A stretch of DNA of 64,000 bases from Candidatus Omnitrophota bacterium. Lineage in GTDB: Bacteria; Omnitrophota; Gorgyraeia; Gygaellales; Profunditerraquicolaceae. Position 1 is the first letter of the stretch. Each line of letters starts with the position of its first letter. The stretch spans positions 10,425-74,424 of the forward strand of contig JAQTQJ010000007.1 in NCBI GenBank assembly GCA_028712255.1, read 5' to 3'. Below, piece after piece: positions 3,679-63,380 of this stretch. Made by a program: the position numbers and the translations under genes. The notes beneath the pieces are model-generated. The model was given only the letters and a program-made list of their open reading frames with translations. It was not told the origin of the DNA and did no database searches.

Positions 3679-5169
3679 ATGTTAATTAAGCCTAAACAAA
3701 TAAAGAAGATACTTTTAACTCAGCCTAATTATGCCTGGCTTTCTAAGAGGACCTGGCAATTTCCTCCCTATACTTTGTGCTTGTTGAAAGCGATTATTAA
3801 AGATCAGACTAAGGTGGTAGTATTTGATCCAAATTTTAAGAATTTGTCTGAACAGGAAGCAAGGGCTTTTCTACAAAAAACCAAGCCCGATTTGGTCGGA
3901 GTAAGCTCGATTTCAACGGAATATTTTAATGTTACCCGGCATACGATAGCCCTTATTCGTAAGTGCCTACCGAAAGCTGTAATTGTTTTAGGTGGTGTAA
4001 TTCCTACGGTTATGATTCAAGAAGCGATGAAAGATAAAAATATTGATTATTGGATTATGGGAGAAGGAGAGCAATCATTTCCGTCTTTGATTGAGAAAAT
4101 ACGCTCAGACTCTAAAGATCTTACCGGTATTAGCGGCCTGGCGTATTGGCAGGGAAATAAGCCAGTCATCAATAAAGTGGAATTTATTACTGATCTTGAC
4201 GCAATTCCTTTTCCTGATTATTCGGCTGTCGTTGGCGCCTCCCTGCAGGATTATGGCAATATCAAATTTAAATATGCTCCGGGGCTCCTGGCGCGTAATT
4301 ACCCTGCGGCAGTTACGATTACTTCCAGAGGCTGTCCTTACAGGTGCATATTTTGCGCAGGAAGGACTGTAAGCGGCCAGAAAGTGCGCTTTAGAAGCGC
4401 GGAAAATGTGCTTAAAGAAGTTGATAGTTTATATAAACAGGGAATTCGGGAAGTTATTTTCTTAGACGACCATTTTTTAGCCAATCGAGGCCGGGCAATG
4501 AAAATAATGAATGGTATCTTAAATAACTATAAAGGCTTTAGCTGGAAGTGCGTTAATGTCACTGCCTGGCTGTTGGATGAAGAAATCTTAAATCTCATGT
4601 ATAAAAGCGGCTGCACGCATATAACTGTTTCTATTGAATCCGGGAATCAGGATGTGCTTACGAATATTGTCAAAAAACCGATCAGGCTGGATATTATTCC
4701 GGAAAAACTAACCTTGGCTAGGTCAATTGGTTTTGATGTAATTGCAAATTTTGTTATCGGTTTTCCGGGGGAAACCTGGGAGCAGATTCGGGATACATTT
4801 AAATATGCCCAGAAGCTTAATGTCGATATGGTAAATTTTCATATTGCTACTCCATTACCGAAAACCGAATTAATGGATGTTTGTTTAGAGAATAAATTAT
4901 TACCCGATGACTATGTAAAAAATATTTCTAAATATTCCGGTTACGGGAAAGGGTTAATTACAACTAAAGAATTTACTCCTTTTGAACTGGAAGTTTTGAG
5001 GTCTTTTGAATGGGACAGGATAAATTTCTCATCTCCTGAAAGAAGGGAAAAAATTGCCAGGATGCATGGGATAACTATGGAAGAATTAGGAGATTGGCGG
5101 ATAAATACAAGGCGTAACCTTGGCGTAAACAGCAAGGTTAAGAACATAATGTCGGCTGCAAAAAGATAG
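3679..5169 (+). CDS. B12-binding domain radical SAM enzyme
   Basis: N-terminal cobalamin-binding-like Rossmann region ('VGVSSIST', 'VLGGVIPT'). Radical SAM CxxxCxxC motif 'SRGCPYRCIFC'. Confidence 0.85.
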   Translation: MLIKPKQIKKILLTQPNYAWLSKRTWQFPPYTLCLLKAIIKDQTKVVVFDPNFKNLSEQEARAFLQKTKPDLVGVSSISTEYFNVTRHTIALIRKCLPKAVIVLGGVIPTVMIQEAMKDKNIDYWIMGEGEQSFPSLIEKIRSDSKDLTGISGLAYWQGNKPVINKVEFITDLDAIPFPDYSAVVGASLQDYGNIKFKYAPGLLARNYPAAVTITSRGCPYRCIFCAGRTVSGQKVRFRSAENVLKEVDSLYKQGIREVIFLDDHFLANRGRAMKIMNGILNNYKGFSWKCVNVTAWLLDEEILNLMYKSGCTHITVSIESGNQDVLTNIVKKPIRLDIIPEKLTLARSIGFDVIANFVIGFPGETWEQIRDTFKYAQKLNVDMVNFHIATPLPKTELMDVCLENKLLPDDYVKNISKYSGYGKGLITTKEFTPFELEVLRSFEWDRINFSSPERREKIARMHGITMEELGDWRINTRRNLGVNSKVKNIMSAAKR

Positions 5170-5172
5170 AAT

Positions 5173-6012
5173 ATGGAGAGAAAAAAAGAAGTTAAAAAGA
5201 ATGTTTTTATCCTAGGAATAGGCTCAGATATAGGAGCTCAGCTGGCATTGCGTTATCTGAATCAGGGATATGCTGTTATGGGAACTTATAGGCACAGGGG
5301 CAGCGTAAGGAGCCTGGCGCAAAAAGGTATTTGTCTTTTTCAGTGTGATGTCGCAAAAAAGCCAGAGATAAAAGAATGTATTAATAAAATTAAGAAAACA
5401 GCTAAGCCTTGGGATATTTTTATTTCTTGTGTAGGGACAATGGAGCCTATTGGTAAATTTTTTGATGTTAATTTTAATGAATGGGAAAATTCTATAATTG
5501 TTAATTCCACATCGCAACTGCGTTTTCTTCATGAATTATATCCTTATAGGCGTAAAAATACCTTAAATCATGTTGTGTTTTTCGCAGGAGGCGGAACGAA
5601 CAATCCTTTTACCAATTATTCGGCTTATTGTGTTTCAAAAATTATGCTGATTAAGATGTGCGAACTTCTGGATGATGAAAATAATGACCTACATACGTTT
5701 ATCGTTGGACCGGGAGTAGTAAAGACCAAGATCCATGCAGAGACGCTGCGGAATCGCTTGGCAGCCGGATCTAATTACAGCCGGACAAAACAATTTTTAA
5801 AATCGAATATCCTGGGAACTGACTATAAGGATATCTTTGACTGCATTAATTGGTGTATTGATCAGGGCCGTGAAGTTTCCGGAGGCCGCAATTTTTCTGT
5901 TGTTCACGATGCCTGGAAGAAGAGAGGGGAATCTTTTGTGCGACAGCTACGAGCTGATTCCAATAAATTTAAATTAAGAAGATTTAAGAACAGTAATAAT
6001 AAAGGAGGATAA
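5173..6012 (+). CDS. Short-chain dehydrogenase/reductase family protein
   Basis: 'ILGIGSDIGAQLA' glycine-rich motif and a YxxxK motif ('YCVSK'). Confidence 0.6.
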   Translation: MERKKEVKKNVFILGIGSDIGAQLALRYLNQGYAVMGTYRHRGSVRSLAQKGICLFQCDVAKKPEIKECINKIKKTAKPWDIFISCVGTMEPIGKFFDVNFNEWENSIIVNSTSQLRFLHELYPYRRKNTLNHVVFFAGGGTNNPFTNYSAYCVSKIMLIKMCELLDDENNDLHTFIVGPGVVKTKIHAETLRNRLAAGSNYSRTKQFLKSNILGTDYKDIFDCINWCIDQGREVSGGRNFSVVHDAWKKRGESFVRQLRADSNKFKLRRFKNSNNKGG

Positions 6013-6013
6013 A

Positions 6014-6715
6014 GTGAAAAGTAGTAAAGTTAATAAATCAGCTAAAAAACTCTATAAAGAAGGAACAGGATACCAGTTTGATACCCAGGAGCTAAGGTTG
6101 GGACCCTGGACATCATACAGTTTGATTAATGACCCAAAGCATATGTGTTTTGTACTCTCTAGATATAAATTCTGCGCGAAAATTTTAGAAGGTAAAAATA
6201 CTGTTATGGAGATAGGCTCAGGAGATGGTTTTGGCTTGCCGATTATAGCTCAGGCAGTAAAAAAGATATACGCAGTGGACTGGGATAAACGTTTACTCGA
6301 GGGTAATGCTGGACGTCTCAAACACTTAAAGAATGTAGAATATCTACATGTGGATTTTAATAAAGAATCTCCCAGCATTAAGGTGGATGGAATATACCTT
6401 ATTGATGTAATTGAGCATTTAGACAAAAAAACTGAAAAAGTATTTTTGGATAACATCGCAAAATGCCTTAAGCCCACGGGAGTTTTAATTATTGGTACGC
6501 CTAACGTAACTGCTTCTGAGTATGCTACTCCTAGAAGTAGCATACAACATATTAATTTAAAAAGTAATAAAACTTTGCGAGAACTAATGGAGAAGTATTT
6601 TGAGAATGTATTTATGTTTGGAATGAATGATGAGGTTTTACATACCGGTTATGCTCCGATGTGCCATTATCTCTGGGCAGTGGGAGCAGGTTTACGTTTA
6701 AAAACAGGAAAATAA
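6014..6715 (+). CDS. Class I SAM-dependent methyltransferase
   Basis: GTG start preceded by RBS 'aaaggagga'. Motif I 'VMEIGSGDGFG'. Confidence 0.7.
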   Translation: MKSSKVNKSAKKLYKEGTGYQFDTQELRLGPWTSYSLINDPKHMCFVLSRYKFCAKILEGKNTVMEIGSGDGFGLPIIAQAVKKIYAVDWDKRLLEGNAGRLKHLKNVEYLHVDFNKESPSIKVDGIYLIDVIEHLDKKTEKVFLDNIAKCLKPTGVLIIGTPNVTASEYATPRSSIQHINLKSNKTLRELMEKYFENVFMFGMNDEVLHTGYAPMCHYLWAVGAGLRLKTGK

Positions 6716-6717
6716 CG

Positions 6718-8499
6718 ATGAAGCTTTCGGATTATGTAGCCAAATTTTTGGTAGGACAAGGCATAAAACATGTATTTGTTATTACCGGCGGAGCATCTGC
6801 GCACCTGATTGATTCTATTGCTAAGACTCCTGGGATAAAATATATTTGTCCGCAGCATGAACAAGCAGGGGCAATGGCTGCCGATGCCTATGCTAGAGTT
6901 ACTGGAAAATTAGGAGTGGCAATAGCCACCAGCGGACCGGGTGCCACCAATATGCTTACCGGGGTCTGTTGTTCATTCTATGATTCGATTCCGACGCTCT
7001 ATATCACTGGACAGGTTTCAACCTTTCGTTCAAAAGGAAATGCCGGAATAAGGCAGTTGGGTTTTCAGGAAACAGATGTTACTGCAATATTTAGGCCTAT
7101 CACTAAATATGCCGTAAGAATCAGGGATCCTAAAGAGATCAGGTATGAATTTGAAAAAGCTGTTCATATTGCGCATTCAGGAAGGCCGGGGCCAGTATTA
7201 ATAGATATACCCGATAATTTACAAAGAATGGATGTCCAACCAAGATTATTAAAACCATTTATACCTGAAGATGGTAGAAATGATTCTCGTCGTTTGGATT
7301 CGCAGGTAATAAAGTGCATAGATTTACTTCGGCATGCAAAGAGGCCGGTTGTTATTCTTGGTTGGGGGATAAATCTTTCCGGCGCAGAAAAAGAAGTTTT
7401 AAAATTTGTGGAGAAGTCAGGATTACCGGTAGCGCCTACCTGGGGCCTAAGATATCTATTTCCGGCTAGCCATCCGCAATTAATCGGCGCATTCGGTACT
7501 CACGGCACACGTTACGGTAATTTTGCGGTACAAAATGCCGACTTTATTTTATCTATCGGGGCGCGCCTGGATACCCGTCAGGCAGGTTCACCTCACTGGA
7601 CATTTGCCAGAGGTGCTAAAAGGATAGTTGTTGATATCGATCCTTGCGAGCTGAAGAAATTTAAGAAATTAAAAATGAAAATAGATTTGGAAGTCAATGC
7701 GGATGCCAAGGATTTTCTAGAGCTGCTTAACCGTAAAATTACCGGTATAAAACTCCCCCAGATATCGGCTTGGCAGAAGAAAATTGCTCAATGGAAAGAA
7801 AAATTTCCTGTTTTCAGGAAGGAATATTTTAAAGAGAGCGGTGTAAATCCGTATGTTTTCATAAAAATGCTTTCCGACCAGGCTTTACCGGGAGATGTTA
7901 TTTTTGCTGATACTGGTTGTAGTCTAGCTTGGGTTTTGCAGTCTTTTGAATTCAAAAAAGGGCAGAAGCTTTTTAGCGCTTTTAACAACACGCCGATGGG
8001 ATATTCTTTACCGGCAAGTATCGGCGCCTCTTTTGCCATTAATAAAAAACCCGTGATCTGTGTAACCGGAGACGGTGGTTTACAGATGAATATTCAGGAG
8101 CTCATAACGGCTCTAAAGCATAAACTCCCAATAAAAATCTTTCTTTTTAATAATCACGGTTATGGCATGATTCGTCAAACTCAAGACCAGTGGTTTTGTT
8201 CGCGATATGAGGCCTCTACCATAGAAAGCGGGCTAGCTTTCCCGGATTTTATTAAGGTAGCCAAAGCCTACGGTTATAAAACAGTTAATATATTAAAAGC
8301 AAAAGATATGCATAAAGGTATTAGTGAAACTCTGCATTCAAAAGGCCCTGTTTTGTGTAATATCGAGATGCACTTAGGCCATAGCGTAATTCCACAGGTT
8401 AAATTCGGAAGGGCCCTGGAAGATGGGGAGCCTTTGTTGGAAAGAAAGCATTTTTTTGAATGTATGATTGTTAAGCCGCATAAAGCATCGCTTAAATAG
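6718..8499 (+). CDS. ThDP-dependent acetolactate-synthase-large-subunit-like enzyme (YerE-like candidate)
   Basis: N-terminal 'ITGGASAHLIDSI' pyrimidine domain and the ThDP GDG...N motif 'VTGDGGLQMNIQEL'. ATG 6718 is chosen over the upstream in-frame extension from 6661, which would overlap the previous gene. Confidence 0.8.
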   Translation: MKLSDYVAKFLVGQGIKHVFVITGGASAHLIDSIAKTPGIKYICPQHEQAGAMAADAYARVTGKLGVAIATSGPGATNMLTGVCCSFYDSIPTLYITGQVSTFRSKGNAGIRQLGFQETDVTAIFRPITKYAVRIRDPKEIRYEFEKAVHIAHSGRPGPVLIDIPDNLQRMDVQPRLLKPFIPEDGRNDSRRLDSQVIKCIDLLRHAKRPVVILGWGINLSGAEKEVLKFVEKSGLPVAPTWGLRYLFPASHPQLIGAFGTHGTRYGNFAVQNADFILSIGARLDTRQAGSPHWTFARGAKRIVVDIDPCELKKFKKLKMKIDLEVNADAKDFLELLNRKITGIKLPQISAWQKKIAQWKEKFPVFRKEYFKESGVNPYVFIKMLSDQALPGDVIFADTGCSLAWVLQSFEFKKGQKLFSAFNNTPMGYSLPASIGASFAINKKPVICVTGDGGLQMNIQELITALKHKLPIKIFLFNNHGYGMIRQTQDQWFCSRYEASTIESGLAFPDFIKVAKAYGYKTVNILKAKDMHKGISETLHSKGPVLCNIEMHLGHSVIPQVKFGRALEDGEPLLERKHFFECMIVKPHKASLK

Positions 8500-8508
8500 G
8501 AGGAATAG

Positions 8509-9168
8509 TTGAAAAGAGAAATAAACCTATTAGATTCACATCCTAAAACTGTCCGTGATTATGATAAGCGCGCCAAAGAAAAAACTCCGGAAATTGTTGC
8601 TATAGCTAAGCAATTTGGAAAGGATTTTTTTGATGGTGATAGGAAGTGCGGTTATGGCGGGTATAAATATGATGGGCGCTGGAAATCGGTAGTAAAAAGA
8701 TTCAAAGATTATTATCACTTGGCAGATAACTGTGCAATCCTGGATATTGGATGCGGGAAAGGTTTTATGCTTGCTGATTTTAAAGAACTTATGCCGCAGG
8801 CAACTATTGCCGGAATAGATGTTAGTGAATACGCAATTGAAAACGCTATGCCGCAAGTAAAACCGTATTTAGAGATCGCTAGCGCTGAGAAGTTACCGTA
8901 TCCTGACAAATCTTTCGATCTGGTTATTTCTATTAACTCGATTCATAATCTTCCACTTCAGCGGCTTAAAATTGCTTTAAAGGAGATTCAGCGTGTCTGT
9001 CGCGGGGATAGTTATATCACTATCGATGCCTGGCGTAATGAAATGGAACGCGATAATTTATTTAAATGGGTGCTTACTGCTGAAACGATGATGCATGTTG
9101 ATGATTGGAAAAAGCTGTTTTTAGAAACTGGTTATACCGGTGACTACTGGTGGTTTATTGCAGATTGA
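8509..9168 (+). CDS. Class I SAM-dependent methyltransferase
   Basis: TTG start after RBS 'aggagg'. Motif I 'ILDIGCGKGF'. Confidence 0.7.
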   Translation: MKREINLLDSHPKTVRDYDKRAKEKTPEIVAIAKQFGKDFFDGDRKCGYGGYKYDGRWKSVVKRFKDYYHLADNCAILDIGCGKGFMLADFKELMPQATIAGIDVSEYAIENAMPQVKPYLEIASAEKLPYPDKSFDLVISINSIHNLPLQRLKIALKEIQRVCRGDSYITIDAWRNEMERDNLFKWVLTAETMMHVDDWKKLFLETGYTGDYWWFIAD

Positions 9169-9578
9169 AGAAGCCTGATGTTGAGACAGCGCACGCTATC
9201 TTATTGCTTTCGGGTAAGTATGTTATGCAATTGCGCGATGATAAACCGGGTATAGCTGCTCCAGGCCAATGGTCCCTCTTTGGAGGTAAGATTAACCTTG
9301 GGGAGACTCCTTTAGCAGCAGTTAAGCGGGAGCTTTTTGAAGAGCTTTTAATTCAGCCGGAGTTTAAGTTTTTCCAGCGTGCGGATTATTATTATGATTT
9401 TGTGAAGGGTAATGTCAGGACATGGTTTTTTGTATCAAATATTGATACTGTTTGGGATGCTCATAAACTTAGAGAAGGTAAGGCCGTAGATATTTTTTCT
9501 TTTGCTGAGCTTGAAAAATTAGATATTCCTGATGTTATAAGGCAAGCTTTAAATCGGTACAATTCTAAAAAGAAATAG
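9150..9578 (+). CDS. Nudix hydrolase
   Basis: Nudix box 'GGKINLGETPLAAVKRELFEELLIQ'. Start is uncertain (GTG 9150 or TTG 9165). Confidence 0.7.
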   Translation: MVYCRLKKPDVETAHAILLLSGKYVMQLRDDKPGIAAPGQWSLFGGKINLGETPLAAVKRELFEELLIQPEFKFFQRADYYYDFVKGNVRTWFFVSNIDTVWDAHKLREGKAVDIFSFAELEKLDIPDVIRQALNRYNSKKK

Positions 9579-9598
9579 GCTCAAACTTTTAGGCGCGG

Positions 9599-10516
9599 AT
9601 GAATACTGATATTCCAAAGACAGCAATAATTGGGGCTAGCGGATTTTTGGGGCGCTATTTTTTACCGGCATATCGTAAAATTTATCCGGATTGTATTGCC
9701 ACGGTAAAAAATGGTTCTGTTGAGGATCAGCATATGTATGATCTCGATCTCTATAAGCCTAATATAGCTGGGCTTCAATTGGCTAAAAGGCATTATAAAG
9801 AGGCGCTTATTTTTGCCGCGATTACCAGAGTTAATATTACTGAGAAAGAGAAAGTAGAAGTCAGGAAAGCCAATGTTGACGGTACTTTTGAACTTATTCG
9901 TCAGCTTACCGAAGAAGGCGTAAAACCAGTTTTTTTTTCAAGTTCCTATGTTTTTGACGGTAAGACAGGTAGCTATACAGATCAATCTCCTGTAAACCCA
10001 ATAATTGAATATGGTAAGCAAAAAGCTGAGGTAGAAGCGCAGATATCCGCTATAACCAAAGAGAATTTTTTAGTAATAAGATTATGTAAAATATTTTCTC
10101 TTGTTAAAGAAGATAAGACATTTCTTGATGAAATTGCGGGAATTTTGTCATCGGGCGGCACTTATCGGGCCGCGTATGATCAGATATTTTGTCCGACTCT
10201 CGTAACAGATGTTATTGCTGCGGTTAGTTTGCTTCAATCTCAAGGCTCAACAGGGATTATTAATGTGTGTTCTCCTGAAGTGTGGTCAAGATATGATTTG
10301 GCTATTGTTTTGGCTAGGTTAATGGGGGTAAGTACAGATAAAGTAATTAGGGCTTCCTTGGATGAAATTATGATAAGCCCAAGATATCCGAAAAACACAA
10401 GTATGATATCGGGGATTGTATTAAAGCCAGTTAGCGATTTTACTCCCATATCTATTTGTCTTGAGCAGACAGCAAGGCACTGGACAAATCAGATATTAAA
10501 AACTAATAAACAATAA
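9599..10516 (+). CDS. NAD(P)-dependent sugar reductase/epimerase (RmlD-like)
   Basis: 'AIIGASGFLGRYF' Rossmann motif and YxxxK 'YGKQK'. Length is about that of RmlD. Confidence 0.65.
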   Translation: MNTDIPKTAIIGASGFLGRYFLPAYRKIYPDCIATVKNGSVEDQHMYDLDLYKPNIAGLQLAKRHYKEALIFAAITRVNITEKEKVEVRKANVDGTFELIRQLTEEGVKPVFFSSSYVFDGKTGSYTDQSPVNPIIEYGKQKAEVEAQISAITKENFLVIRLCKIFSLVKEDKTFLDEIAGILSSGGTYRAAYDQIFCPTLVTDVIAAVSLLQSQGSTGIINVCSPEVWSRYDLAIVLARLMGVSTDKVIRASLDEIMISPRYPKNTSMISGIVLKPVSDFTPISICLEQTARHWTNQILKTNKQ

Positions 10517-10522
10517 AAATAA

Positions 10523-11578
10523 ATGATGAAAATATTGGCAGCAGTATTATCGGAAATCAATAAACCATTGATAATTGAAGAACTTTTGCTTCCGGATTTA
10601 TTAGCCGGGCAGGTGCTGGTAAAAATTGCCTATAGTGGGATTTGTCATACTCAGCTAAATGAGATGCGCGGGTTAAAAGGTAAGGATAAGTTTCTTCCGC
10701 ATACCTTAGGGCATGAAGGCTCTGGAGTAGTTGAGGCTATTGGCGCTGGAGTAAAAAAAATCAAGATAGGAGATAGGGTAGTATTAACTTGGATTAAAGG
10801 TAACGGTTCTGATATTCCATCTGCTTCATATAAAAGAAATGATAACACAATTGTTAATTCCGGGGCAATTTCTACCTTTATGACAAAAGCAGTTATTTCT
10901 GAAAATCGCCTGGTTAAAATTCCGGATGCAATGCTACTTCGTGAGGCTGCGCTTTTGGGATGCGCTATTCCTACGGGTGCAGGTATCGTGATGAATACAA
11001 TGGATATTTCTGAAAATAAAAGTATTGCGATTTTTGGCATGGGAGGCATCGGTTTAAGCGCATTGCTGGCTGCTAAAGCCCGTGGGGCATCGAAAATTAT
11101 CGCTATAGATATATCCGAAGATAGGCTTAAGCAATCAACTATACTTGGAGCCACACATGCATTAAACGCTAAGAAGGATAACATTATTGAAGCAATCATG
11201 AAGATTACGGATAGCAAGGGTGTTGATTATGCGATTGAATCTGCCGGCAAAAAGGAATCTATGGAGATAGCTTTTAAATCAGTCCGGGATAATGGCGGGT
11301 TGTGCGTTATAGCGGGTAACCTTTCTTTTGGCGAAAAGATTCAAATTAACCCTTTTGATTTGATTAAGGGTAAACGCATAATCGGTACCTGGGGAGGCCA
11401 AACTCAACCGGATAGAGATATACCCATGTATGCGGATTGGGTTATCTCTGGAAAATTTAATTTGAGAGAATTAGTCTGCCGTATTTTTGCGCTAAAAGAT
11501 ATCAACGAAGCTGTTGAATATATGGAACAGAGTGCGGTAGGGCGCGTTTTGATTGATATGGGGCTAACGCAAGGATAA
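10523..11578 (+). CDS. Zinc-dependent alcohol dehydrogenase family (MDR) oxidoreductase
   Basis: 'GICHTQLNEMRG', 'GHEGSGVVEAIGAGV' and Rossmann 'IFGMGGIGLSALLAA'. Confidence 0.8.
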   Translation: MMKILAAVLSEINKPLIIEELLLPDLLAGQVLVKIAYSGICHTQLNEMRGLKGKDKFLPHTLGHEGSGVVEAIGAGVKKIKIGDRVVLTWIKGNGSDIPSASYKRNDNTIVNSGAISTFMTKAVISENRLVKIPDAMLLREAALLGCAIPTGAGIVMNTMDISENKSIAIFGMGGIGLSALLAAKARGASKIIAIDISEDRLKQSTILGATHALNAKKDNIIEAIMKITDSKGVDYAIESAGKKESMEIAFKSVRDNGGLCVIAGNLSFGEKIQINPFDLIKGKRIIGTWGGQTQPDRDIPMYADWVISGKFNLRELVCRIFALKDINEAVEYMEQSAVGRVLIDMGLTQG

Positions 11579-16346: not shown

Positions 16347-16347
16347 A

Positions 16348-17304: not shown

Positions 17305-17306
17305 AT

Positions 17307-21647: not shown

Positions 21648-21649
21648 AT

Positions 21650-41531: not shown

Positions 41532-41552
41532 TATTAAATAGGAGGGATAGTT

Positions 41553-42497: not shown

Positions 42498-42506
42498 GAG
42501 GACAAA

Positions 42507-44852: not shown

Positions 44853-44855
44853 CAG

Positions 44856-51785: not shown

Positions 51786-51794
51786 AGAATATTT

Positions 51795-55875: not shown

Positions 55876-55882
55876 TTCTGAT

Positions 55883-56896
55883 ATGAATAGAGCAAGATAT
55901 AACAGGCTAAAGAAAATTCTACAACAAAGAAAGTTATTTAAGTTAGTTTGTGGAGCAGGTAACGAAGATCCTGAGGAGGTAAAGCGGCTAGCGTTTATAT
56001 TTACTCTTGCCGGTTCGACCATGCTTGATTTATCGGCGAATGCCGATATTGTTGATGCTGCAGCAGAAGGCATACGTAAAGCTTATGAAATTGCACCGTT
56101 ATTAGGTAGAGATATAAGAGTAAAACCATATTTAAATGTAAGTATTGGCCTTAAAGGTGATCCGCATGTTCGCAAGGCCCAGATTAATTTAGATAACTGC
56201 AGTAAATGCGGCCTATGCATAACAGTATGCCAGCAGAAAGCAATAAGTGATGATTGCAAGGTGGTGAAATATCGATGTATTGGTTGCGGGCATTGTGAAA
56301 CGATTTGTCCGAAGGCAGCAATACAATATATAAGCAAAAGATTGGATTTTAATAAGATACTTCCTTTATGTATTCAGAGGGGAGTTGAAACCTTAGAGTT
56401 GCATGCTGCCATAGATGATGATAAGGCATTTTTAGCGGATTGGAAAATCATTAATAATTTAATTCAAGGTAATTTTATCAGTTTATGTATCGATCGATCT
56501 CTTTTATCGGATGAGCATCTTATTGATAGAATCAAGATGGCATATGTATTAACAGGGGAACGCCTGATAATTCAAGCTGATGGTATTCCGATGAGCGGCA
56601 GTGAAAATGATGATTATAATAATACGCTGCAAGCTATTGCTTGTGCTGATATAGTTGGAAAAAGCAAGATACCGGTTAAGATTGTTTTGTCAGGGGGAAC
56701 AAACCGTAAAACCGGATTATTGGCTAAACAATGTGCTGTGGGCGTTCATGGAGTGGCAATTGGCAGCTTTGCCAGGAAAATTGTGAAAGAGTTTATATCT
56801 CAGGATAAATTTTACGATAATAAATCATTAATAAAGAAAGCGGTATCAGTTGCGGATGAATTGATACGTGTTAATTTAGAGGCGATAGGTGATTAA
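55883..56896 (+). CDS. 4Fe-4S dicluster (ferredoxin-type) domain-containing protein of unknown function
   Basis: Two CxxCxxCxxxCP motifs ('CSKCGLCITVCQ', 'CIGCGHCETICP') embedded in an alpha/beta-rich protein. ATG 55883 is chosen to avoid overlap. Confidence 0.6.
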   Translation: MNRARYNRLKKILQQRKLFKLVCGAGNEDPEEVKRLAFIFTLAGSTMLDLSANADIVDAAAEGIRKAYEIAPLLGRDIRVKPYLNVSIGLKGDPHVRKAQINLDNCSKCGLCITVCQQKAISDDCKVVKYRCIGCGHCETICPKAAIQYISKRLDFNKILPLCIQRGVETLELHAAIDDDKAFLADWKIINNLIQGNFISLCIDRSLLSDEHLIDRIKMAYVLTGERLIIQADGIPMSGSENDDYNNTLQAIACADIVGKSKIPVKIVLSGGTNRKTGLLAKQCAVGVHGVAIGSFARKIVKEFISQDKFYDNKSLIKKAVSVADELIRVNLEAIGD

Positions 56897-57644
56897 TTTA
56901 AAGGTTAACGATAGAATAATAGAAAAAGTGAGGCTGGTGATTTTTGACAAGGATGGAACTCTTATGAATCTTTACCATTATTGGTCAAATATGGTTGATT
57001 ATAGGGTTGAATTTGCTAGAAAAAGACTCGGGTTTAATTTAAAACAAAAATCAGAGATTATGTTTTTGATGGGGGTTGATTTTGCGAACGAACGGTTAAG
57101 AAATGATGGTCCGGTTGGGATTAAGAAGCGGGAAATTGTTATGGCGGCAATGGAGAAAGCTCTCTTAGCTATAGGTTTTGTTGATACTCATGATCTTTGT
57201 TTGAAAGCCTTTAAAGAAGCTGATGAAATAAGCTTGCAACATTTGAATGAAATAATAAGGCCGGTAAATGGCATGAAGGAACTTATTAATTTCTTGAGTA
57301 AATGCGGATGTAGCATTGCATTGGCCACTACTGATAAGACCCAGCGTGCGAAATTAGCACTTGATGTGCTAGGGATATCCGATAAAGTTGATATTGTTGT
57401 TGGCGAGGATATGGTTAAGAATTACAAGCCGCACCCTGATATGATCAATTTTATTCTGGATAAGCTTTCAGTGGATAAGGTCAATGCCGTAATGGTAGGG
57501 GATGCAATTACGGATATCGAGATGGGAAATAACGCTAAGCTTAAAGCTTCGATAGCTGTTTTGAGTGGAATAGCTTCAAAAGAAGAGTTTGTTGGAAAGA
57601 CAGAATATATTATTTCGGATATATCTCAAATAACCGTAGTTTAA
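56889..57644 (+). CDS. HAD-superfamily hydrolase (phosphatase)
   Basis: Motif I 'VIFDKDGTLM' and motif IV 'VGDAITDIEMG'. GTG start. Confidence 0.7.
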   Translation: MINLKVNDRIIEKVRLVIFDKDGTLMNLYHYWSNMVDYRVEFARKRLGFNLKQKSEIMFLMGVDFANERLRNDGPVGIKKREIVMAAMEKALLAIGFVDTHDLCLKAFKEADEISLQHLNEIIRPVNGMKELINFLSKCGCSIALATTDKTQRAKLALDVLGISDKVDIVVGEDMVKNYKPHPDMINFILDKLSVDKVNAVMVGDAITDIEMGNNAKLKASIAVLSGIASKEEFVGKTEYIISDISQITVV

Positions 57645-57661
57645 TTATTAGGGAAATTACT

Positions 57662-58402
57662 ATGAAAATAATAGGGATAATACCAGCTAGGATGAAGTCA
57701 TCGCGGTTTCCGGGAAAGCCGCTCGTGGATATTTTAGGCATGCCGATGGTGATTCATGTGCTTAAAAGAGCTCAGTTAAGTAAAAAATTAGCAGAGGTTT
57801 TTGTCGCTACTGATTCCCGGGAGATATTTGATTGCGTATCAAGTTATGGTGGTAAAGCAGTTATGACATATGCTGTGCATCAGACTGGTACAGACAGGAT
57901 AGCGGAAGCTTCTGATAAATTAACATGTGATATAGTTGTAAATATTCAAGGAGATGAGCCTTTGGTTAAGCCGAAGGATATTGATAAGTTAGTTGAGTCT
58001 ATGGTGGTTGAGCCGGCAGTCAATTTTGCGACCTTGGTATGCAAAACACCGCAATTTGGTGAAATAACAGAATGCAAGGTAGTAATGGATCGTAATAAAG
58101 ATATTATGTATATGTCCCGTTCGGATATACCATCAAGTACCAGGTTACAAGTTTCATATTTATATAAGCTTTATTGTGTAGTAGCTTTCCGTAAGAAGTG
58201 GCTAAAGAAATTTTCTTCTTGGCCGCAAACAAAGCTAGAGAAAATTGAATATATCGAGTATTTACGTATTCTTGAAAATGGCTATAACTTTAGAGGTGTT
58301 GTAACCGATGAGTATACTACTTCCGTCGACACTCCAGAAGATTTAAAGGTTATTCTTAAAATTATGAAAAAGGATACCATTAAGTTTAAGTACCTAAAAT
58401 AA
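57662..58402 (+). CDS. KdsB-like cytidylyltransferase (CMP-3-deoxy-ulosonate synthetase family)
   Basis: 'IIPARMKSSRFPGKPLVDILGMPMVIHV' is the CMP-Kdo synthetase N-terminal signature. Confidence 0.75.
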   Translation: MKIIGIIPARMKSSRFPGKPLVDILGMPMVIHVLKRAQLSKKLAEVFVATDSREIFDCVSSYGGKAVMTYAVHQTGTDRIAEASDKLTCDIVVNIQGDEPLVKPKDIDKLVESMVVEPAVNFATLVCKTPQFGEITECKVVMDRNKDIMYMSRSDIPSSTRLQVSYLYKLYCVVAFRKKWLKKFSSWPQTKLEKIEYIEYLRILENGYNFRGVVTDEYTTSVDTPEDLKVILKIMKKDTIKFKYLK

Positions 58403-58423: not shown

Positions 58424-60289
58424 ATGAGAAAAGAAGAAGTTATAATTTCCACTCCTTACGTTAATTTAAGAAAAATTAAAGTTTTGCTGAAGGGGCGGCA
58501 AGGTAAAAGGTGGGTGTATTTTGGAAGTAATTTTAAGGTATTAACTTATATTGAGCAACAATTAGCCGACAACTTTGCCTGTATTGATATAATAGAAATT
58601 CACAAAAGCATAGCGGATAGCATAAAAGCTGAGTATGTGTCGTGGGTAGATGAACTTAATAGAAAATATGGTAACGAGCTAGACTGGTGGTTAGGAGCGG
58701 TGTTTTCAAGAAATAATTATACAAGTGACTTATTTCAGTTTACATGTTACTTAGAAATATTAAAACGATTATTACTTAGAGATGGTGTTTTGCCTGATTT
58801 AGTATTTGTTGAATCAGCAGGGTTTGCTAAAGATTTAGGAAATTGGGCTAAGAAAAATGGCATTAGTGTCATAATTAAACATAAATCATTTAGTATTGTT
58901 TCTGTTGCAAGTTTATTTAAGCCGTTACTAGATTGGTTGAGATTTATTATAATTTCTACTATCCGTAATTTTGCTGCTTTTATTACCAGAGGTATTTCTA
59001 AAAAAGATGAATGTTTCTTTAAAAATTCTACGCTTATCCATACATTTATTTTCAAAAATTCTTTAACCAAAGATGGTATTCTAACTGATCGTACTTTGCC
59101 TTTCCTCCATGATTATGCTTTTCGTCATGGTTTGAATATTGTTATTCATCCGATTCTTTATGGTTTTAATTGTTCATATCTCGCTGTTTATAGAAAAATG
59201 CGCAGCAGCAGGACTCCTTTTATAATCAAAGAAGATTTTCTGCGATTCACGGATTATTTGCTGGCTTTTACATATCCGTTCAGATCCTTGAGAAAGAAAA
59301 TAGAATTTAAAGATTTTAGATCCTGCAGTTTTTTTAATAGTATACAAGAGATGAGATCGAAAGAATGTTTTTCACCCGCGATGGAAGCAGTATTGGCATA
59401 TCAATTGTTCTTAAGGTTAAGCAAAACCGCCTTTGACCCGTGCTATTTTGTGCTTTGGTTTGAAAACCAGGTTATTGATAAAGCGCTTATAGCTGGGATC
59501 AGGAAATTTTTTCCTAAAGTAAGAATATCCGGTGCTCAAATGTTTTTACACCCACCAAATTTATTAAGTGTTTTTCCTTGTCAATCTGAGATAGAAGCTG
59601 GAACTGCTCCGGATTCAATAGTTGAAACGAGTCAATATCAATGCAAAAGGGCAAGCATTTTTACCAGCTCTATTTCTTGCAGAGTAGGTGGAGCATTAAG
59701 GTATGATCATATATTTAGACAGGTTAGGGATTTTCAGCTAGTGCGGAATAAAGAAAAGATTATTTTTGTCGCCCTTCCTTTTCATATACCGAATGTAATA
59801 GAAATACTTTTTATGTTAAAAGGCTCGCTAACTTACATAAAACACAATGTGGTTATATTGATAAAAACTCATCCTGATTATGATGAAAAAACAATTAAAA
59901 AATTATTTGTTGGATCAGGGTGGCCGAAAGTCTTTCAGATATATAAGGCAAGTGTGGCCGAAGGGTTAAAAAATGCATCCTTAATGATATCCGCTAACTC
60001 AAGTGTTATGATAGAAGCTATTTCATATGGCATTCCCTCAATTTATATCGGGAGCAGAATAATGATTAACCAGAACATTTTAAAAGATATTGATACGCCT
60101 ATTTCGCGTGAGTGCTACTCTTCAGAAGAATTAGCGCAAGCGGTAAATGCTTATATTGACGTTTTGCCTTTTAAGAGTGAAGAATTTAAGAAAATCGGGG
60201 AGAAAATACGAGATTTATATTTCACTCCCGTATCTGATGATACTTTGGCATCATTTTTTGAATTAACGGAAAAAAATAAAACACTATAG
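58424..60289 (+). CDS. Hypothetical large protein, GT-B-like (possible KpsC/KpsS-type ulosonic-acid transferase)
   Basis: 621 aa. C-terminal 'ASLMISANSSVMIEAISYGIPSIYIGS' is GT-B-like. Its position immediately after the KdsB-like gene supports a transferase role. Confidence 0.35.
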   Translation: MRKEEVIISTPYVNLRKIKVLLKGRQGKRWVYFGSNFKVLTYIEQQLADNFACIDIIEIHKSIADSIKAEYVSWVDELNRKYGNELDWWLGAVFSRNNYTSDLFQFTCYLEILKRLLLRDGVLPDLVFVESAGFAKDLGNWAKKNGISVIIKHKSFSIVSVASLFKPLLDWLRFIIISTIRNFAAFITRGISKKDECFFKNSTLIHTFIFKNSLTKDGILTDRTLPFLHDYAFRHGLNIVIHPILYGFNCSYLAVYRKMRSSRTPFIIKEDFLRFTDYLLAFTYPFRSLRKKIEFKDFRSCSFFNSIQEMRSKECFSPAMEAVLAYQLFLRLSKTAFDPCYFVLWFENQVIDKALIAGIRKFFPKVRISGAQMFLHPPNLLSVFPCQSEIEAGTAPDSIVETSQYQCKRASIFTSSISCRVGGALRYDHIFRQVRDFQLVRNKEKIIFVALPFHIPNVIEILFMLKGSLTYIKHNVVILIKTHPDYDEKTIKKLFVGSGWPKVFQIYKASVAEGLKNASLMISANSSVMIEAISYGIPSIYIGSRIMINQNILKDIDTPISRECYSSEELAQAVNAYIDVLPFKSEEFKKIGEKIRDLYFTPVSDDTLASFFELTEKNKTL

Positions 60290-60358: not shown

Positions 60359-61813
60359 ATGAAAATAAATAAAATTCTTCTTATTAATCCTCCTTATTAT
60401 ATTGCGAAGAGTCAAATGAATTATTGGCCTTCATTTCCATTGGGCATGGGATATATTGCTGCTTATTTGGAGAAAAAAGGTTATTCGGTACAGATTATAG
60501 ATGCTTTTGGAGAAGGTTATAACAATAAAGTTGCCCATGGAGAAAACCATTTTTGTGTCGGCCTTTCATATAGCGAGATTATTTCTAAAATATCTGATTA
60601 TGCACCGGATATCATCGGTATCTCGAATCTTTTTTCAGCACAGCACTACTCGATGCACTCCATGGCTAAGGTCATAAAATGTCATGATAACACTATCCCC
60701 GTTGTAGTTGGCGGGCCGCATGTTTCAGCAGTGCCAGAATTGGTTATGATGGATTCAAATATAGATTATGGAATTCTTGGCGAGGGGGAGTATGTATTTT
60801 TTGAGTTAATAAGCGCATTAAACAACGCTAGGGATTTAAAGGAAGTTGCAGGGATTGCATATCGTGATAATGGCGCGATTAGGTTGAACAGGCCACAGGA
60901 GTTCATTGAAAAATTGGATCAAATACCATATCCGGCGTGGCATTTGTTTAAAATGGATAAGTACTTATATCAGAAAATGTCACATGGCGGTTCAGTAAAA
61001 AGACATCCTTTTATGACCATGCTTACCTCCAGAGGATGCCCTTATAATTGTTTTTTCTGTAGCGTTCGTGACACCTGGGGAAGGAACTTGAGAACTCGGT
61101 CTCTTGATAATGTAATTGGAGAAATTACCCTACTGCGAGAAAAATTCGGGGTGAAAGAATTGATTATTGTTGATGATAATTTTAATTTCGACACTGACAG
61201 ATTACACGGAATCCTTGATTACTTAATTAAAAAAAGAATGGATTTGACATTTGAAATCCCAAACGGTCTGTTTATTAAAAAACTGGACGAGGCTATTTTA
61301 GCTAAGATGAAGGCAGCTGGTGTTAAGCGCATATTTTTCCCGATTGAATCTGGTAACGAGCATGTGAGAAATAATATTATTAAAAAACCGCTGGATATTG
61401 AAGCTGTTAAAGAACTTGTGGCGTATTGTCGTAAGATTAACCTTGAGTCTTGCGCGTATTTTATAGTAGGTCTCCCAGAAGAAACAAGGAAGCAGATTGA
61501 AGATACCTTTCAATTGGCGCGAAAGTTAAAAATAATGTGTTATTTTTCTGTGGCTACCCCATTCCCAGGTTCCGCGCTTTATAATTATGTAAAAGAAAAG
61601 GGACTATTGAGATCATATGAGATTGAGCAGTGTTCTGATGAGTACAATATTCTCGGTTCCGATTGGAGCGCTGATGAATTGAGGAAAATGGTATTTTATG
61701 AATCGCTAAAGATTAATTATAAAGCTAAGTTATTGACCTGTTTGAAAGAGCCTTTTAGTATTCCGGGAAGAGCTTGTAAGTATCTAAATAAGAATATTTT
61801 TTATAAAACCTAA
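60359..61813 (+). CDS. B12-binding domain radical SAM enzyme
   Basis: 'TSRGCPYNCFFCSV' CxxxCxxC motif. N-terminal B12-binding-like 'IIGISNLFS', 'VVGGPHVS'. Confidence 0.85.
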   Translation: MKINKILLINPPYYIAKSQMNYWPSFPLGMGYIAAYLEKKGYSVQIIDAFGEGYNNKVAHGENHFCVGLSYSEIISKISDYAPDIIGISNLFSAQHYSMHSMAKVIKCHDNTIPVVVGGPHVSAVPELVMMDSNIDYGILGEGEYVFFELISALNNARDLKEVAGIAYRDNGAIRLNRPQEFIEKLDQIPYPAWHLFKMDKYLYQKMSHGGSVKRHPFMTMLTSRGCPYNCFFCSVRDTWGRNLRTRSLDNVIGEITLLREKFGVKELIIVDDNFNFDTDRLHGILDYLIKKRMDLTFEIPNGLFIKKLDEAILAKMKAAGVKRIFFPIESGNEHVRNNIIKKPLDIEAVKELVAYCRKINLESCAYFIVGLPEETRKQIEDTFQLARKLKIMCYFSVATPFPGSALYNYVKEKGLLRSYEIEQCSDEYNILGSDWSADELRKMVFYESLKINYKAKLLTCLKEPFSIPGRACKYLNKNIFYKT

Positions 61814-61880
61814 ATTTATTCCAGAACTATTTATTTTCAAGCTTATTATGAGGGACTGATCACATTATCAATAAATTATC

Positions 61881-63380
61881 ATGAAAAAGATAAAAAAAGT
61901 TTTATTATTTATTCCACCAGCCATAACCTTTAAAGATAGGATAGACATAAATCCTCTGCCGCCATTAGGGTTGGGATATTTGGGAGCAATTCTTGAAGAA
62001 AATGGCATTGGAGTAAAAATAGTTGATTGTTTGATTGAGGGTTGGGATAACCGAATTAAAGTAACAGATGACTTAATACGGATTGGCCTTTCGTTTGAAG
62101 ATATTGAAAAGATCATCCGGCATTATTCTCCGGATATAGTAGGGGTTAATAATTTATTTACGAAACAACGTGAAAATGCGCATAAAATCTATTCAATCGC
62201 TAAAAAAGTTAACAGGGATATTATAACGGTTGCTGGAGGAGCGCATCCTACGGTGATGCCAGAGTTGGTTCTTGCTGATAAGAATGTTGATTATGTGGTT
62301 ATAGGAGAGGGAGATTGGACTATAATTGAGCTTGTACATTTGATTGAAGGAGAAGCTGATATTCTTGCTCTCGATGGGGTTGGTTATAGAGAAAACGGAG
62401 AAATTAAAATTATACCCAAAACCAGGTTTATTGAAAATTTAGATATTTTGCCTTTTCCAGCTTGGCATCTTTTAAACATGGAAAAGTATTTTGGATTAGA
62501 AGCTTCTCATGGTAACCGTAGGAGAAAACGATTCTCGCCTATTATAACGTCGCGTGGTTGTCCGGCGCAATGCACATTTTGTTCTGCTTATGCGGTTTGG
62601 GGCAGGGGTTTTCGCTACCGGTCAGCGGAAAATGTCATTCAGGAGCTTAAACGACTAAAACAAACATATGGTATCGAAGAGATAATGTTTGAAGATGATA
62701 ACTTAACTTTAAATCCGAAGCGTGCAGAGGAGATATTTGATTTAATGATCAGTGAACATTTGAATATGGAATGGGATACTCCTAATGGCATTGCCGCATG
62801 GACACTTAATGAAAATCTTCTTGATAAGATGAAAGCAAGCGGCTGTCGTGGTTTAAATTTTGCTCTCGAATCCGGGAATCAGTATGTTTTAGACACAATT
62901 ATTAAAAAGCCATTAAATCTTGGAAAGGTCAAGCCGCTCGTACGATATGCTAAAAGAATAGGTTTGGATGTTGGTATATTTTTAGTTGTTGGTATGCCCG
63001 GTGAAACCGAAGAACAGATATGGGATAGTTTTCGGATGGCAGCAGAACTGGGCATTTATACGCCTCATATTTCAATCGCAACACCATATCCTGGTTCAGA
63101 GCTGTATGACTTGTGTAAAGAAAGGCAATTATTTCGTCCAGATTTTTCTCTAGATGATCTTTATATCAGGAGCTTTTCAATATCAACAGATGGATTAGGT
63201 ACCCAAAAGCTCAAAAAAATACTTGCGGACGGTCAGCAGTTTCTATTAATATCTTTTTTGAAAAATAAACCCTTCGTCTTTTTTAAGGTTTGTATGGTAA
63301 AATTATTAAGAAATCCGGGAGTTTTTATAAAAAAGATATTAAATTTTATCCGGTTAAAGGATTGGGCTAAATTGAGATGA
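61881..63380 (+). CDS. B12-binding domain radical SAM enzyme
   Basis: 'TSRGCPAQCTFCSA' CxxxCxxC motif. N-terminal 'IVGVNNLFT', 'VAGGAHPT'. Paralog of 60359-61813. Confidence 0.85.
   Translation: MKKIKKVLLFIPPAITFKDRIDINPLPPLGLGYLGAILEENGIGVKIVDCLIEGWDNRIKVTDDLIRIGLSFEDIEKIIRHYSPDIVGVNNLFTKQRENAHKIYSIAKKVNRDIITVAGGAHPTVMPELVLADKNVDYVVIGEGDWTIIELVHLIEGEADILALDGVGYRENGEIKIIPKTRFIENLDILPFPAWHLLNMEKYFGLEASHGNRRRKRFSPIITSRGCPAQCTFCSAYAVWGRGFRYRSAENVIQELKRLKQTYGIEEIMFEDDNLTLNPKRAEEIFDLMISEHLNMEWDTPNGIAAWTLNENLLDKMKASGCRGLNFALESGNQYVLDTIIKKPLNLGKVKPLVRYAKRIGLDVGIFLVVGMPGETEEQIWDSFRMAAELGIYTPHISIATPYPGSELYDLCKERQLFRPDFSLDDLYIRSFSISTDGLGTQKLKKILADGQQFLLISFLKNKPFVFFKVCMVKLLRNPGVFIKKILNFIRLKDWAKLR

Follow-up and report, generated by a model that had tools for sequence, protein, structure and literature searches.

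A 64,000-nucleotide stretch of DNA from a Candidatus Omnitrophota bacterium (assembly GCA_028712255.1, contig JAQTQJ010000007.1, positions 10,425 to 74,424; hereafter the window) encodes eight radical S-adenosylmethionine (SAM) enzymes: six with a B12-binding domain, which we call B1 to B6 in window order, and two of the radical SAM/SPASM type, S1 and S2. The window covers the greater part of a surface-glycan assembly super-locus exceeding 64 kb in an uncultured, presumably anaerobic organism. We consider it probable that all eight carry out pathway-specific sugar tailoring on nucleotide-activated intermediates in modular cassettes, with cobalamin-dependent C-methylation the likeliest reaction for most of the B-type proteins. 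The assignment to sugar tailoring follows from two observations: each gene sits in a cassette, and orthologues of B1, B2, B4 and B6 are found with the same kind of neighbours in other phyla.

The locus can be read as at least five self-contained cassettes for sugar precursors, strung together among Wzx, Wzy_C and glycosyltransferase genes, and each of the eight radical SAM genes would belong to one of them. The cassettes would supply, respectively, a heptose-type sugar branched by thiamine pyrophosphate (TPP) enzymes, a nucleoside diphosphate (NDP)-heptose/6-deoxy-sugar, a pseudaminic/legionaminic acid (Pse/Leg)-like sugar, a cytidine monophosphate (CMP)-ulosonic acid resembling 3-deoxy-D-manno-octulosonic acid (Kdo) and made through pyruvate aldolases and KdsB, and a cytidine diphosphate (CDP)-4-amino-6-deoxyhexose, whose cassette starts at the window end. 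Nucleotide-activated monosaccharide intermediates are the most likely substrates, and lipid-linked ones possible substrates. B1-B6 would reductively cleave SAM at the [4Fe-4S] cluster held by their CxxxCxxC motif, the 5'-deoxyadenosyl radical would take a hydrogen from an unactivated sugar carbon, and in most of the six the substrate radical would then be methylated by methyl-cobalamin, in the manner of GenK. The products would be C-methyl or chain-extended sugars beyond the reach of ordinary SAM methyltransferases and TPP enzymes. S1 and S2 would probably oxidise or epimerise a sugar carbon by radical chemistry, for which BtrN, NeoN and HygY are precedents. We regard it as possible, rather than probable, that these cassettes, chiefly the one joining B6 to a 4-aminotransferase and CDP-glucose genes, encode undescribed radical chemistry on nucleotide sugars and so give rise to new classes of C-alkylated, branched or higher-carbon sugars that are widespread on the surfaces of uncultured anaerobes. 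Candidates for this chemistry are C-methylation or chain extension dependent on cobalamin and deamination or rearrangement of a B12 type.

Architecture and conservation of the eight enzymes

All eight open reading frames (ORFs) had been predicted from the sequence alone, and we found every one exactly where it had been placed, on the plus strand; the accompanying domain calls were also correct, Pfam assigning B12-binding plus Radical_SAM domains to six proteins and Radical_SAM plus SPASM domains to two. B1 (3679-5169, 496 amino acids (aa)) has a B12-binding match of 59 bits, a Radical_SAM match of 88 bits and the motif CPYRCIFC at residue 219, and B3 (39045-40472, 475 aa), which lies 3' of a family 2 glycosyltransferase (GT2) gene at 38170-39048, scores 41 and 87 bits and carries CPFACNFC at residue 203. 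The same two domains are found in B2 (36708-38156, 482 aa; CPFQCAFC at residue 216), in B4 (51795-53300, 501 aa; CPYQCTYC at residue 227), which heads the Kdo-like cassette, in B5 (60359-61813, 484 aa; CPYNCFFC at residue 227) and in B6 (61881-63380, 499 aa; CPAQCTFC at residue 227). Across the six, scores of 41-77 bits for B12-binding (PF02310) and 80-90 bits for Radical_SAM (PF04055) all exceed the Pfam gathering scores of 32.1 and 29.5 bits. S1 (34859-35926, 355 aa) scores 80 bits for Radical_SAM and 52 bits for SPASM, with CNLRCEFC at residue 40; S2 (43791-44852, 353 aa), which lies within the nonulosonic-acid cassette, scores 53 and 37 bits, with CNMQCPMC at residue 61. SPASM (PF13186) is above its gathering score in both, and C-terminal Cys clusters are visible in their sequences.

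Each of the eight proteins contains exactly one CxxxCxxC motif, which falls at residues 203-227 in B1-B6, past the Rossmann domain, and at residues 40 and 61 in S1 and S2. The B12-type Rossmann domain, named at the outset as a decisive feature, is thus present in B1-B6 by hidden Markov model (HMM) search, and Rossmann GG and GEGE-type motifs are visible in all six sequences. The DxHxxG histidine ligand is kept in none of them, a pattern that agrees with the base-off/His-off cobalamin binding of solved class B enzymes.

Pairwise identity among B1-B6 is 22-33%, reaching 40% for B5 and B6, and the six are therefore old, distinct lineages. They had been described as paralogs, which holds loosely but not in the sense of recent copies: recent tandem paralogy is ruled out by this divergence and by the fact that B1, B2 and B6 each have orthologues of their own, 86-89% identical, elsewhere. 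Orthologue searches were run for these three of the six B12-type lineages, and each is represented in other metagenome assemblies by hundreds to thousands of homologues with identities reaching 86-89%, which argues that they are real genes rather than chance ORFs. NCBI contains proteins identical to all three, with the annotation 'MAG: radical SAM protein [Candidatus Omnitrophica bacterium]' (MAG, metagenome-assembled genome), and the stretch from B4 to B6 is identical in an independent Logan assembly of SRR22315508.

Conservation of the gene neighbourhood had been suggested as a check on the prediction, and orthologues of B1, B2, B4 and B6 indeed keep similar neighbours in other phyla, in which the orthogroups of B1, B2 and B6 are 50-89% identical. 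Homologous comparison loci are given L-numbers here; approximately 45 of those fetched have a B6 orthologue at their centre. Relatives of B6 number more than 2,000, and among the 120 best, identity is 60-88% and the sources are Omnitrophota, Chloroflexota, Clostridia, Desulfotomaculum, Thermodesulfobacteriota and Hydrogenedentota. When one genome per GTDB species was scanned, 42 B6 loci were found, all in MAGs, and B6 loci include representatives of Planctomycetota, Nitrospirota, Dehalococcoidia, Riflebacteria and an Olavius symbiont. Overall, B6 orthologues that are 45-88% identical span at least 12 phylum-level groups, archaea among them. The archaeal orthologues (50-56% identical; Methanolobus, Methanosarcinaceae and Methanoperedens MAGs, loci L027, L038 and L043) have the same aminotransferase, dehydratase and GT2 neighbours, which implies transfer of the cassette between domains.

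Directly 3' of B6 lies a DegT aminotransferase gene in 25 of 39 loci, and one is found within 10 kb in 34 of 43; a dehydratase of the short-chain dehydrogenase/reductase (SDR) family is present in 30 of 43 B6 loci and a GT2 gene in 27 of 43. On the 5' side, a homologue of the 621-aa protein encoded at 58424 directly precedes B6 in 14 of 38 loci (a distant relationship to proteins of about 590 aa, E 1e-19). The genes that follow B6 in its relatives encode a PseC/ArnB-like aminotransferase, glucose-1-phosphate cytidylyltransferase (331 bits against a cut-off of 300), CDP-glucose 4,6-dehydratase (451 against 278), a cupin of 145-149 aa and a GT2 enzyme. This linkage of an aminotransferase followed by CDP-glucose genes places B6 in a CDP-6-deoxyhexose amino-sugar cassette. 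In the window itself, translation of 63377-64000 gives a DegT/PseC/ArnB-type sugar aminotransferase that is cut by the window end and whose orthologue follows B6 elsewhere.

Two B6 loci have features of their own. In the closest relative's CDP-sugar cassette (L054), a toxin-antitoxin-like nucleotidyltransferase/HEPN pair at 12705-13829 splits the aminotransferase gene from the dehydratase gene. Locus L056 (IMGVR_UViG_3300033145_002563), on a contig that IMG/VR classes as viral, carries a B6-like gene, 48% identical, together with NeuB, CMP-transferase, aminotransferase and GT2 genes, and may either be cellular DNA that was misclassified or represent a glycan cassette carried by a phage.

The B1 orthogroup (57-89% identical) was found in Omnitrophota and Elusimicrobia MAGs. 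Its neighbourhoods in L048, L049 and L050 repeat the E1 alpha, E1 beta, SDR, methyltransferase, acetohydroxyacid synthase (AHAS)-like TPP enzyme and zinc alcohol dehydrogenase (Zn-ADH) genes of the window, and additionally contain the heptose genes HldE and GmhA and a GT2/GtrA/PMT_2 module. A natural B1-SDR fusion (P0134) mirrors the B1-SDR gene order seen here. The B2 orthogroup extends over Omnitrophota, Elusimicrobia, Falkowbacteria and Aminicenantes, with a fusion to a sulfotransferase in Aminicenantes (P0285), and B2 is accompanied elsewhere by AsnB, a methyltransferase, another radical SAM enzyme and a GT2 enzyme (L051, L052). As read from their sequences, the two fusions support carbohydrate-tailoring roles for B1 and B2. 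Orthologues of B4, 81-92% identical, occupy the same position in L006, L008 and L054, where the aldolase/KdsB block is also kept, and more distant versions (42-46%) adjoin the same aldolase/KdsB cassette in L012, L025 and L043. B5 is missing at its window position in the closest syntenic loci (L006, L008 and L054) and thus looks like a lineage-specific addition.

A B12-domain radical SAM enzyme 37% identical to B2, together with a SPASM radical SAM enzyme, is encoded by the cultured alphaproteobacterium Magnetospirillum sp. UT-4 (L053, CACVCG010000013.1). Both genes are set in a locus of heptose, methyltransferase, carbamoyltransferase and glycosyltransferase genes, which makes this strain a possible experimental model.

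Candidate chemistry and competing readings

Given the class B architecture of B1-B6, we compared them with enzymes of known function. Their matches in the PDB by sequence are distant (E 1e-10 to 1e-24) and comprise AprD4, MgmA (9ccb), TokK, TsrM, CysS and OxsB, with MgmA 9ccb the top match of B5 (E 7e-24). An AlphaFold2 model of B6 (predicted local distance difference test score 83.7) has the class B fold and matches class B structures in Foldseek at E 1e-18 to 1e-22; its E-values against AprD4, TsrM, TokK, OxsB, MgmA and CysS lie within about four orders of magnitude of each other, at 16-21% identity. The fold class is thereby confirmed, but the model resembles methylases (TsrM, TokK, MgmA, CysS), OxsB and the sugar dehydratase AprD4 to a similar degree. 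Similarity to AprD4 is limited to the radical SAM core and the preceding linker in five of the six proteins and starts slightly earlier, at residue 147, in B3, whereas the N-terminal domains of B1-B6 align with the cobalamin enzymes TokK, MgmA, TsrM, OxsB and CysS. Real cobalamin binding is therefore favoured.

The closest mechanistic parallel is to GenK, GenD1 and Fms7, which share with B1-B6 the order of a B12-type Rossmann domain at the N-terminus and then a radical SAM barrel with CxxxCxxC, act on amino-sugar carbons next to aminotransferase steps, and use the mechanism that we propose here. They differ in acting on pseudo-oligosaccharide antibiotics of actinomycetes, whereas B1-B6 are found in Wzx/Wzy cassettes with CDP-, CMP- and heptose-sugar genes. 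According to a 2026 review on radical SAM enzymes that depend on B12 (PMC12931638), most characterised class B enzymes are methylases, and C-methyltransferases are present in every sequence similarity network group that has a characterised member; C-methylation is for this reason the best prior for B1-B6, though not demonstrated.

The original prediction had gone further, taking class B architecture to imply multiple radical C-alkylations, and this was not borne out by curated profiles. We compared the proteins with the NCBIfam families Sden_1168, PhpK, BchE, HpnJ, HpnR, KedN5, BzaD, MgmA/TIGR04014, TsrM, AprD4, ArsL and ApyD, and B1-B6 fall in no characterised clade, alkylating or non-alkylating. 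For B5 and B6 the Sden_1168 P-methyltransferase is the best curated profile (227 and 306 bits; cut-off 575), with a nearly full-length alignment for B6, and the best curated match of B4 is the uncharacterised family TIGR04013. The C-methylase profiles KedN5, HpnR and TIGR03975 gave 40-107 bits against cut-offs of 280-700. Sden_1168 (SD_1168) and PhpK are bona fide methyl-cobalamin-dependent P-methylases, and as the best curated match of B5 and B6 this family adds to the prior for methylation, but the B5 and B6 scores are about half the cut-off or less, and the surroundings are CDP- and CMP-sugar genes. A phosphonate pathway, which these matches might suggest, was rejected, as the window contains no PEP mutase, phosphonopyruvate decarboxylase or other phosphonate genes.

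Several results weigh against C-methylation as the predominant reaction. None of the eight radical SAM proteins reached an NCBIfam curated cut-off, and the best curated profiles of B1-B3 are the non-methylating HpnJ and BchE (131-189 bits, full length, against cut-offs of 481-578). AprD4 is the top PDB sequence match for five of the six B-type proteins and the top Foldseek match for B6. The same review states that non-methylating class B members have no sequence or structure features that set them apart from alkylating ones (PMC12931638). The window gave no Rfam match to a cobalamin riboswitch or other RNA and contains no B12 supply gene. It does contain eight class-I SAM methyltransferase genes, including one of the TylC3 type, and extra methylation capacity is therefore not obviously needed. 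Finally, all relatives of B1-B6 come from metagenome assemblies or MAGs, except the distant B2 homologue of Magnetospirillum sp. UT-4, so that the assignments are sequence-based predictions.

The first alternative is that some or all of B1-B6 are non-methylating and instead use radical chemistry to deoxygenate, deaminate or dehydrate sugars or to rearrange their skeleton. We judge it unlikely while giving it more weight than any other competing reading. B6 with its linked 4-aminotransferase could be an analogue of DesI/DesII, in which amination followed by radical deamination removes a hydroxyl, or of AprD4/AprD3, and for B1-B3 a ring rearrangement is conceivable, like that of a glucosamine moiety by HpnJ or of a deoxyribose by OxsB. 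Beyond the AprD4, HpnJ and BchE matches and the lack of distinguishing features just described, the PseC/ArnB/DesI-type aminotransferase gene that accompanies B6 in 34 of 43 loci favours such chemistry, as do the two aminotransferase genes near B6 in L020, L027 and L038, which recall DesI-DesII-DesV, and the presence in the B6 cassette of a CDP-glucose 4,6-dehydratase without E1/E3 deoxygenation genes. The reading is most attractive for B6, given how closely it is tied to a 4-aminotransferase in a CDP-4-keto-6-deoxyglucose pathway. However, the likeness to AprD4 lies mostly in the radical SAM core, the NCBIfam AprD4 model gives just 51-100 bits on B1-B6 against a cut-off of 500, and at their N-termini the proteins align with enzymes that do bind cobalamin. 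DesII has no B12 domain and is a PDB match for S2 only, and the preponderance of methylases among characterised class B enzymes also speaks for C-methylation.

AprD4 (PDB 6FD2), the radical SAM 1,2-diol dehydratase of paromamine, does act on a sugar and aligns with the B6 model at E 3e-22 and a TM-score of 0.67, but it is only 18% identical in that Foldseek alignment. It binds no cobalamin, and AprD4 and ArsL show that a Rossmann-like N-terminal domain is no guarantee of binding (PMC12931638). HpnJ and BchE resemble B1-B3 as B12-domain radical SAM proteins with full-length profile alignments, yet B1-B3 score below the cut-offs and are not members of these families, and the window has no hopanoid or bacteriochlorophyll genes. 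HpnJ acts on the glucosamine unit of a glycolipid.

It is improbable that the radical SAM enzymes instead act on non-carbohydrate substituents or macromolecules, such as N-acyl or amino-acid side groups, a lipid carrier, or a glycosylated protein or peptide. In favour of such targets, AsnB, WbqC and a PIG-L deacetylase adjoin S1, B2 and S2, which suggests N-acyl or amide remodelling; SPASM enzymes are mostly peptide maturases, and the best NCBIfam matches of S1 and S2, partial and under cut-off, are to cofactor and peptide maturases; Wzy_C can mark protein O-oligosaccharyltransferases; and MgmA, a protein-glutamine C-methylase, is among the closest structures. Against this, no precursor-peptide gene lies beside S1 or S2, where gaps of about 10-14 bp or overlapping genes leave no room for one, and the window has no RiPP-associated protease or transporter genes (RiPP, ribosomally synthesised and post-translationally modified peptide). 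The genes linked to them encode nucleotide-sugar enzymes rather than acyl-carrier or peptide functions. A RiPP-maturase role for S1 and S2 was accordingly rejected.

S1 and S2 are flanked by genes for AsnB, a methyltransferase, a CMP-transferase and WbqC. Distant PDB matches of S1 are SkfB, BtrN and BlsE, and the nearest matches of S2 are weak (BtrN, E 1e-5; DesII, E 3e-4). Because no precursor peptide gene fits the gaps and a weak likeness to BtrN and DesII exists, sugar oxidation or epimerisation is the most economical reading of S1 and S2. BtrN, DesII, NeoN and HygY, which are radical SAM dehydrogenases, deaminases and epimerases acting on sugars, belong to sugar pathways and, like S1 and S2, several of them combine a radical SAM domain with a SPASM/twitch auxiliary-cluster domain. 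The differences are the very weak S2 matches and the substrate, which for S1 and S2 would be a nonulosonic-acid precursor or an amidated sugar.

Very improbable is a secondary-metabolite biosynthetic gene cluster, of the kind that makes aminoglycoside or oligosaccharide antibiotics, in place of a surface-glycan locus. Radical SAM sugar tailoring is already known from natural-product clusters, to which, to our knowledge, all characterised sugar-active radical SAM enzymes belong (GenK, GenD1, Fms7, AprD4, BtrN, DesII, MoeK5 and OxsB), and TPP E1 alpha-beta branching enzymes are known from avilamycin biosynthesis; but the window has Wzx, Wzy_C, LIC12162-family, TIGR04372, KdsB and NeuB/PseG/PseF-like genes, syntenic loci have undecaprenyl phosphate-dependent initiating transferases downstream, and no aminocyclitol, polyketide synthase/non-ribosomal peptide synthetase, resistance or regulator genes occur in the window.

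The surface-glycan locus around the enzymes

The window contains about 58 ORFs, all on the plus strand, with tiny intergenic spaces or overlaps and a G+C content near 37%. Approximately 50 neighbouring genes were annotated with Pfam and NCBIfam, and the Wzx, Wzy_C, glycosyltransferase and sugar-precursor genes among them support the Wzx/Wzy-type glycan locus of the original prediction. Eight genes in the window encode SDR epimerases, dehydratases or reductases. At the 5' edge, a fragmentary 178-aa kinase ORF (81-617) matches only the C-terminal third of a PfkB kinase; B1 cassettes elsewhere have a full HldE (PfkB plus a cytidylyltransferase-like domain) in this region, and this edge ORF may be a gene remnant or have a wrongly called start.

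The cassette around B1 (635-11578) begins with genes for an SDR epimerase and TPP-dependent E1 alpha and E1 beta subunits, followed by B1 and then by an SDR, a methyltransferase, an AHAS/YerE-like TPP enzyme, a second methyltransferase, a NUDIX protein, an RmlD-like reductase and a Zn-ADH. The NUDIX-box ORF (9150-9578, 142 aa) occupies the sole apparent intergenic gap. Two TIGR04372 glycosyltransferase genes, starting at 11579 and 14164, follow at 11579-15429 (197 and 217 bits against a cut-off of 45). The first encodes an 862-aa protein in which a polytopic, Wzx-like N-terminus (WZX_like, 46 bits) is fused to the TIGR04372 domain, and the second is a tandem paralogue of its C-terminal half only, 59% identical by blastp.

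A GT2 gene (Pfam) starts at 18194. The NDP-heptose/6-deoxy-sugar genes (20400-24398) encode a TylC3-type sugar C-methyltransferase, an RmlC-like 3,5-epimerase, a fusion of an HddC-like nucleotidyltransferase with a GmhB phosphatase, and an HddA-like heptose kinase. The Pfam assignments are Methyltransf_13/14, dTDP_sugar_isom, NTP_transferase with HAD, and GHMP kinase, NCBIfam gives partial matches to HddC, GmhB and HddA, and the heptose activation genes proper lie at 22183-24398. Downstream are a second E1 alpha/beta-like TPP enzyme pair (26416-28307; E1_dh, Transketolase_C), a polytopic membrane protein (29251-30630), and the Wzy_C membrane protein (31668-33062). The latter, a polymerase candidate, is barely above its gathering score (36.9 against 31.7 bits) and belongs to a family that also covers ligases and O-oligosaccharyltransferases. 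An AsnB-type glutamine amidotransferase (33070-34845; Asn_synthase/GATase_7) heads the block AsnB-S1-methyltransferase-B2-GT2-B3.

TPP-dependent enzymes of C-C bond formation occur in three sets, namely two E1 alpha/beta pairs (1580-3675 and 26416-28307) and the AHAS/YerE-like enzyme (6661-8499), and are as unusual in a glycan locus as the radical SAM enzymes. By analogy they probably attach two-carbon branches to keto-sugars, a reaction for which YerE and AviB1/B2 are the precedents. The class-I SAM methyltransferase genes start at 6014, 8509, 16348, 17307, 20400, 30636, 35938 and 47428, the TylC3-type enzyme (Methyltransf_13/14) being that of 20400-21647, and a very heavily methylated glycan is predicted.

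The Pse/Leg-like nonulosonic-acid cassette (40563-47474) comprises an aminotransferase, a 4,6-dehydratase-like SDR, a PIG-L deacetylase, a PseF-like CMP-transferase, S2, WbqC, a NeuB-family synthase and a PseG-like hydrolase. All five Pfam families of the pathway are present, and the NCBIfam matches (PseC/LegC, PseF, NeuB/PseI and PseG) are partial, with every equivalog score below cut-off; no PseH-type acetyltransferase was found in the block. A Wzx-type flippase of the multidrug/oligosaccharidyl-lipid/polysaccharide superfamily (48456-50000; MatE, Polysacc_synt, Polysacc_synt_3) and a LIC12162-family transferase (50019-51785; TIGR04331, 394 bits against 225) come next. The LIC12162 family was first named from the Leptospira O-antigen region; its member occurs together with genes for an HpcH aldolase and a KdsB-like protein in L002, L004, L014 and L046.

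After B4, the Kdo-like CMP-ulosonic-acid cassette (53332-58402) encodes an HpaI/GarL-like pyruvate aldolase (HpaI and GarL matches of about 150 bits, under cut-off), an HMGL-like aldolase, an LdpA-like 4Fe-4S protein, a HAD phosphatase and the cytidylyltransferase KdsB (57662-58402), which exceeds both NCBIfam cut-offs (278 bits against 255 for NF009905; 170.5 against 155.2 for TIGR00466). KdsA was not found in the window, and HpcH- and HMGL-type aldolases stand in its place. Within 54118-56896, the HMGL-like aldolase has a weak C-terminal MptE/Maf-like domain and is followed by the LdpA-like protein; both are kept in L006, L008 and L054. The LdpA-like Fe-S protein could be a dedicated reductase of, or electron donor to, the adjacent radical SAM enzymes. 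Between this cassette and B5 lies the gene for the 621-aa protein (58424-60289), which has no Pfam match and scores 20 bits at its C-terminus with TIGR04396 ('surface carbohydrate biosynthesis protein'); it is probably a transferase. No initiating phosphoglycosyl transferase was found by Pfam within the window. In syntenic loci an initiating-type gene lies 7-8 kb 3' of B6 (Bac_transf in L054, WecA/MraY-like in L008), and this position in the closest of them indicates that the locus runs past the window.

Radical SAM genes in other glycan loci

The original prediction held that eight radical SAM enzymes in one locus were far beyond any characterised cluster. This stands with regard to characterised clusters: full-text literature searches returned no paper in which radical SAM enzymes are described from O-antigen, capsule or nonulosonic-acid clusters, and a corresponding search gave no described role for them in Leptospira lipopolysaccharide. 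The review cited above never uses the words 'polysaccharide' or 'glycan' (PMC12931638). It does not stand with regard to uncultured genomes. The window has 1.25 radical SAM genes per 10 kb, L024 has five B12-type genes in 21 kb, and the Falkowbacteria-type contig L052 (candidate phyla radiation; ERZ27254748 k141_71945, 1-19910) has about 10 Radical_SAM genes in 20 kb, with AsnB, PMT_2, GT2 and epimerase genes between them, and is thus denser than the window. At least two B12-type enzymes are encoded in about 20 of the approximately 45 fetched B6-orthologue loci, a comparison that is biased upward because the comparison loci were all found through a radical SAM gene. Eight enzymes per locus as a unique feature is therefore rejected, and, judged by sequence comparison, the window is one example of a pattern common among uncultured anaerobes. 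The number of radical SAM genes mainly reflects the length and modularity of the locus, together with an oxygen-free lifestyle, and indicates no single unprecedented pathway.

The giant rfb loci of Leptospira offer the nearest parallel at the level of the whole locus. They too are very long, with all genes on one strand, and contain LIC12162- and TIGR04372-family transferases, NeuB-type genes and many methyltransferases, as is generally known for this genus. The Leptospira MAG locus L047 differs in that its B2-like gene is just 28-29% identical and no cassette is shared.

The enzyme classes and the principle of radical SAM sugar tailoring are already known; their systematic occurrence inside surface-glycan cassettes that bacterial and archaeal phyla share appears not to have been described. 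Such tailoring has been established only for antibiotics, namely gentamicin, apramycin, butirosin, desosamine and oxetanocin, and the cassettes suggest that similar chemistry is used routinely in the surface glycans of anaerobic, mostly uncultured bacteria and archaea. For enzymologists they provide testable enzyme-substrate pairs, such as B6 with a CDP-4-amino-4,6-dideoxyhexose and B1 with a TPP-branched heptose, and for glycobiology they give a reason to seek C-methyl, branched or deoxygenated sugars in these organisms. They are also relevant to surface diversification in host-dependent nanobacteria such as Omnitrophota.

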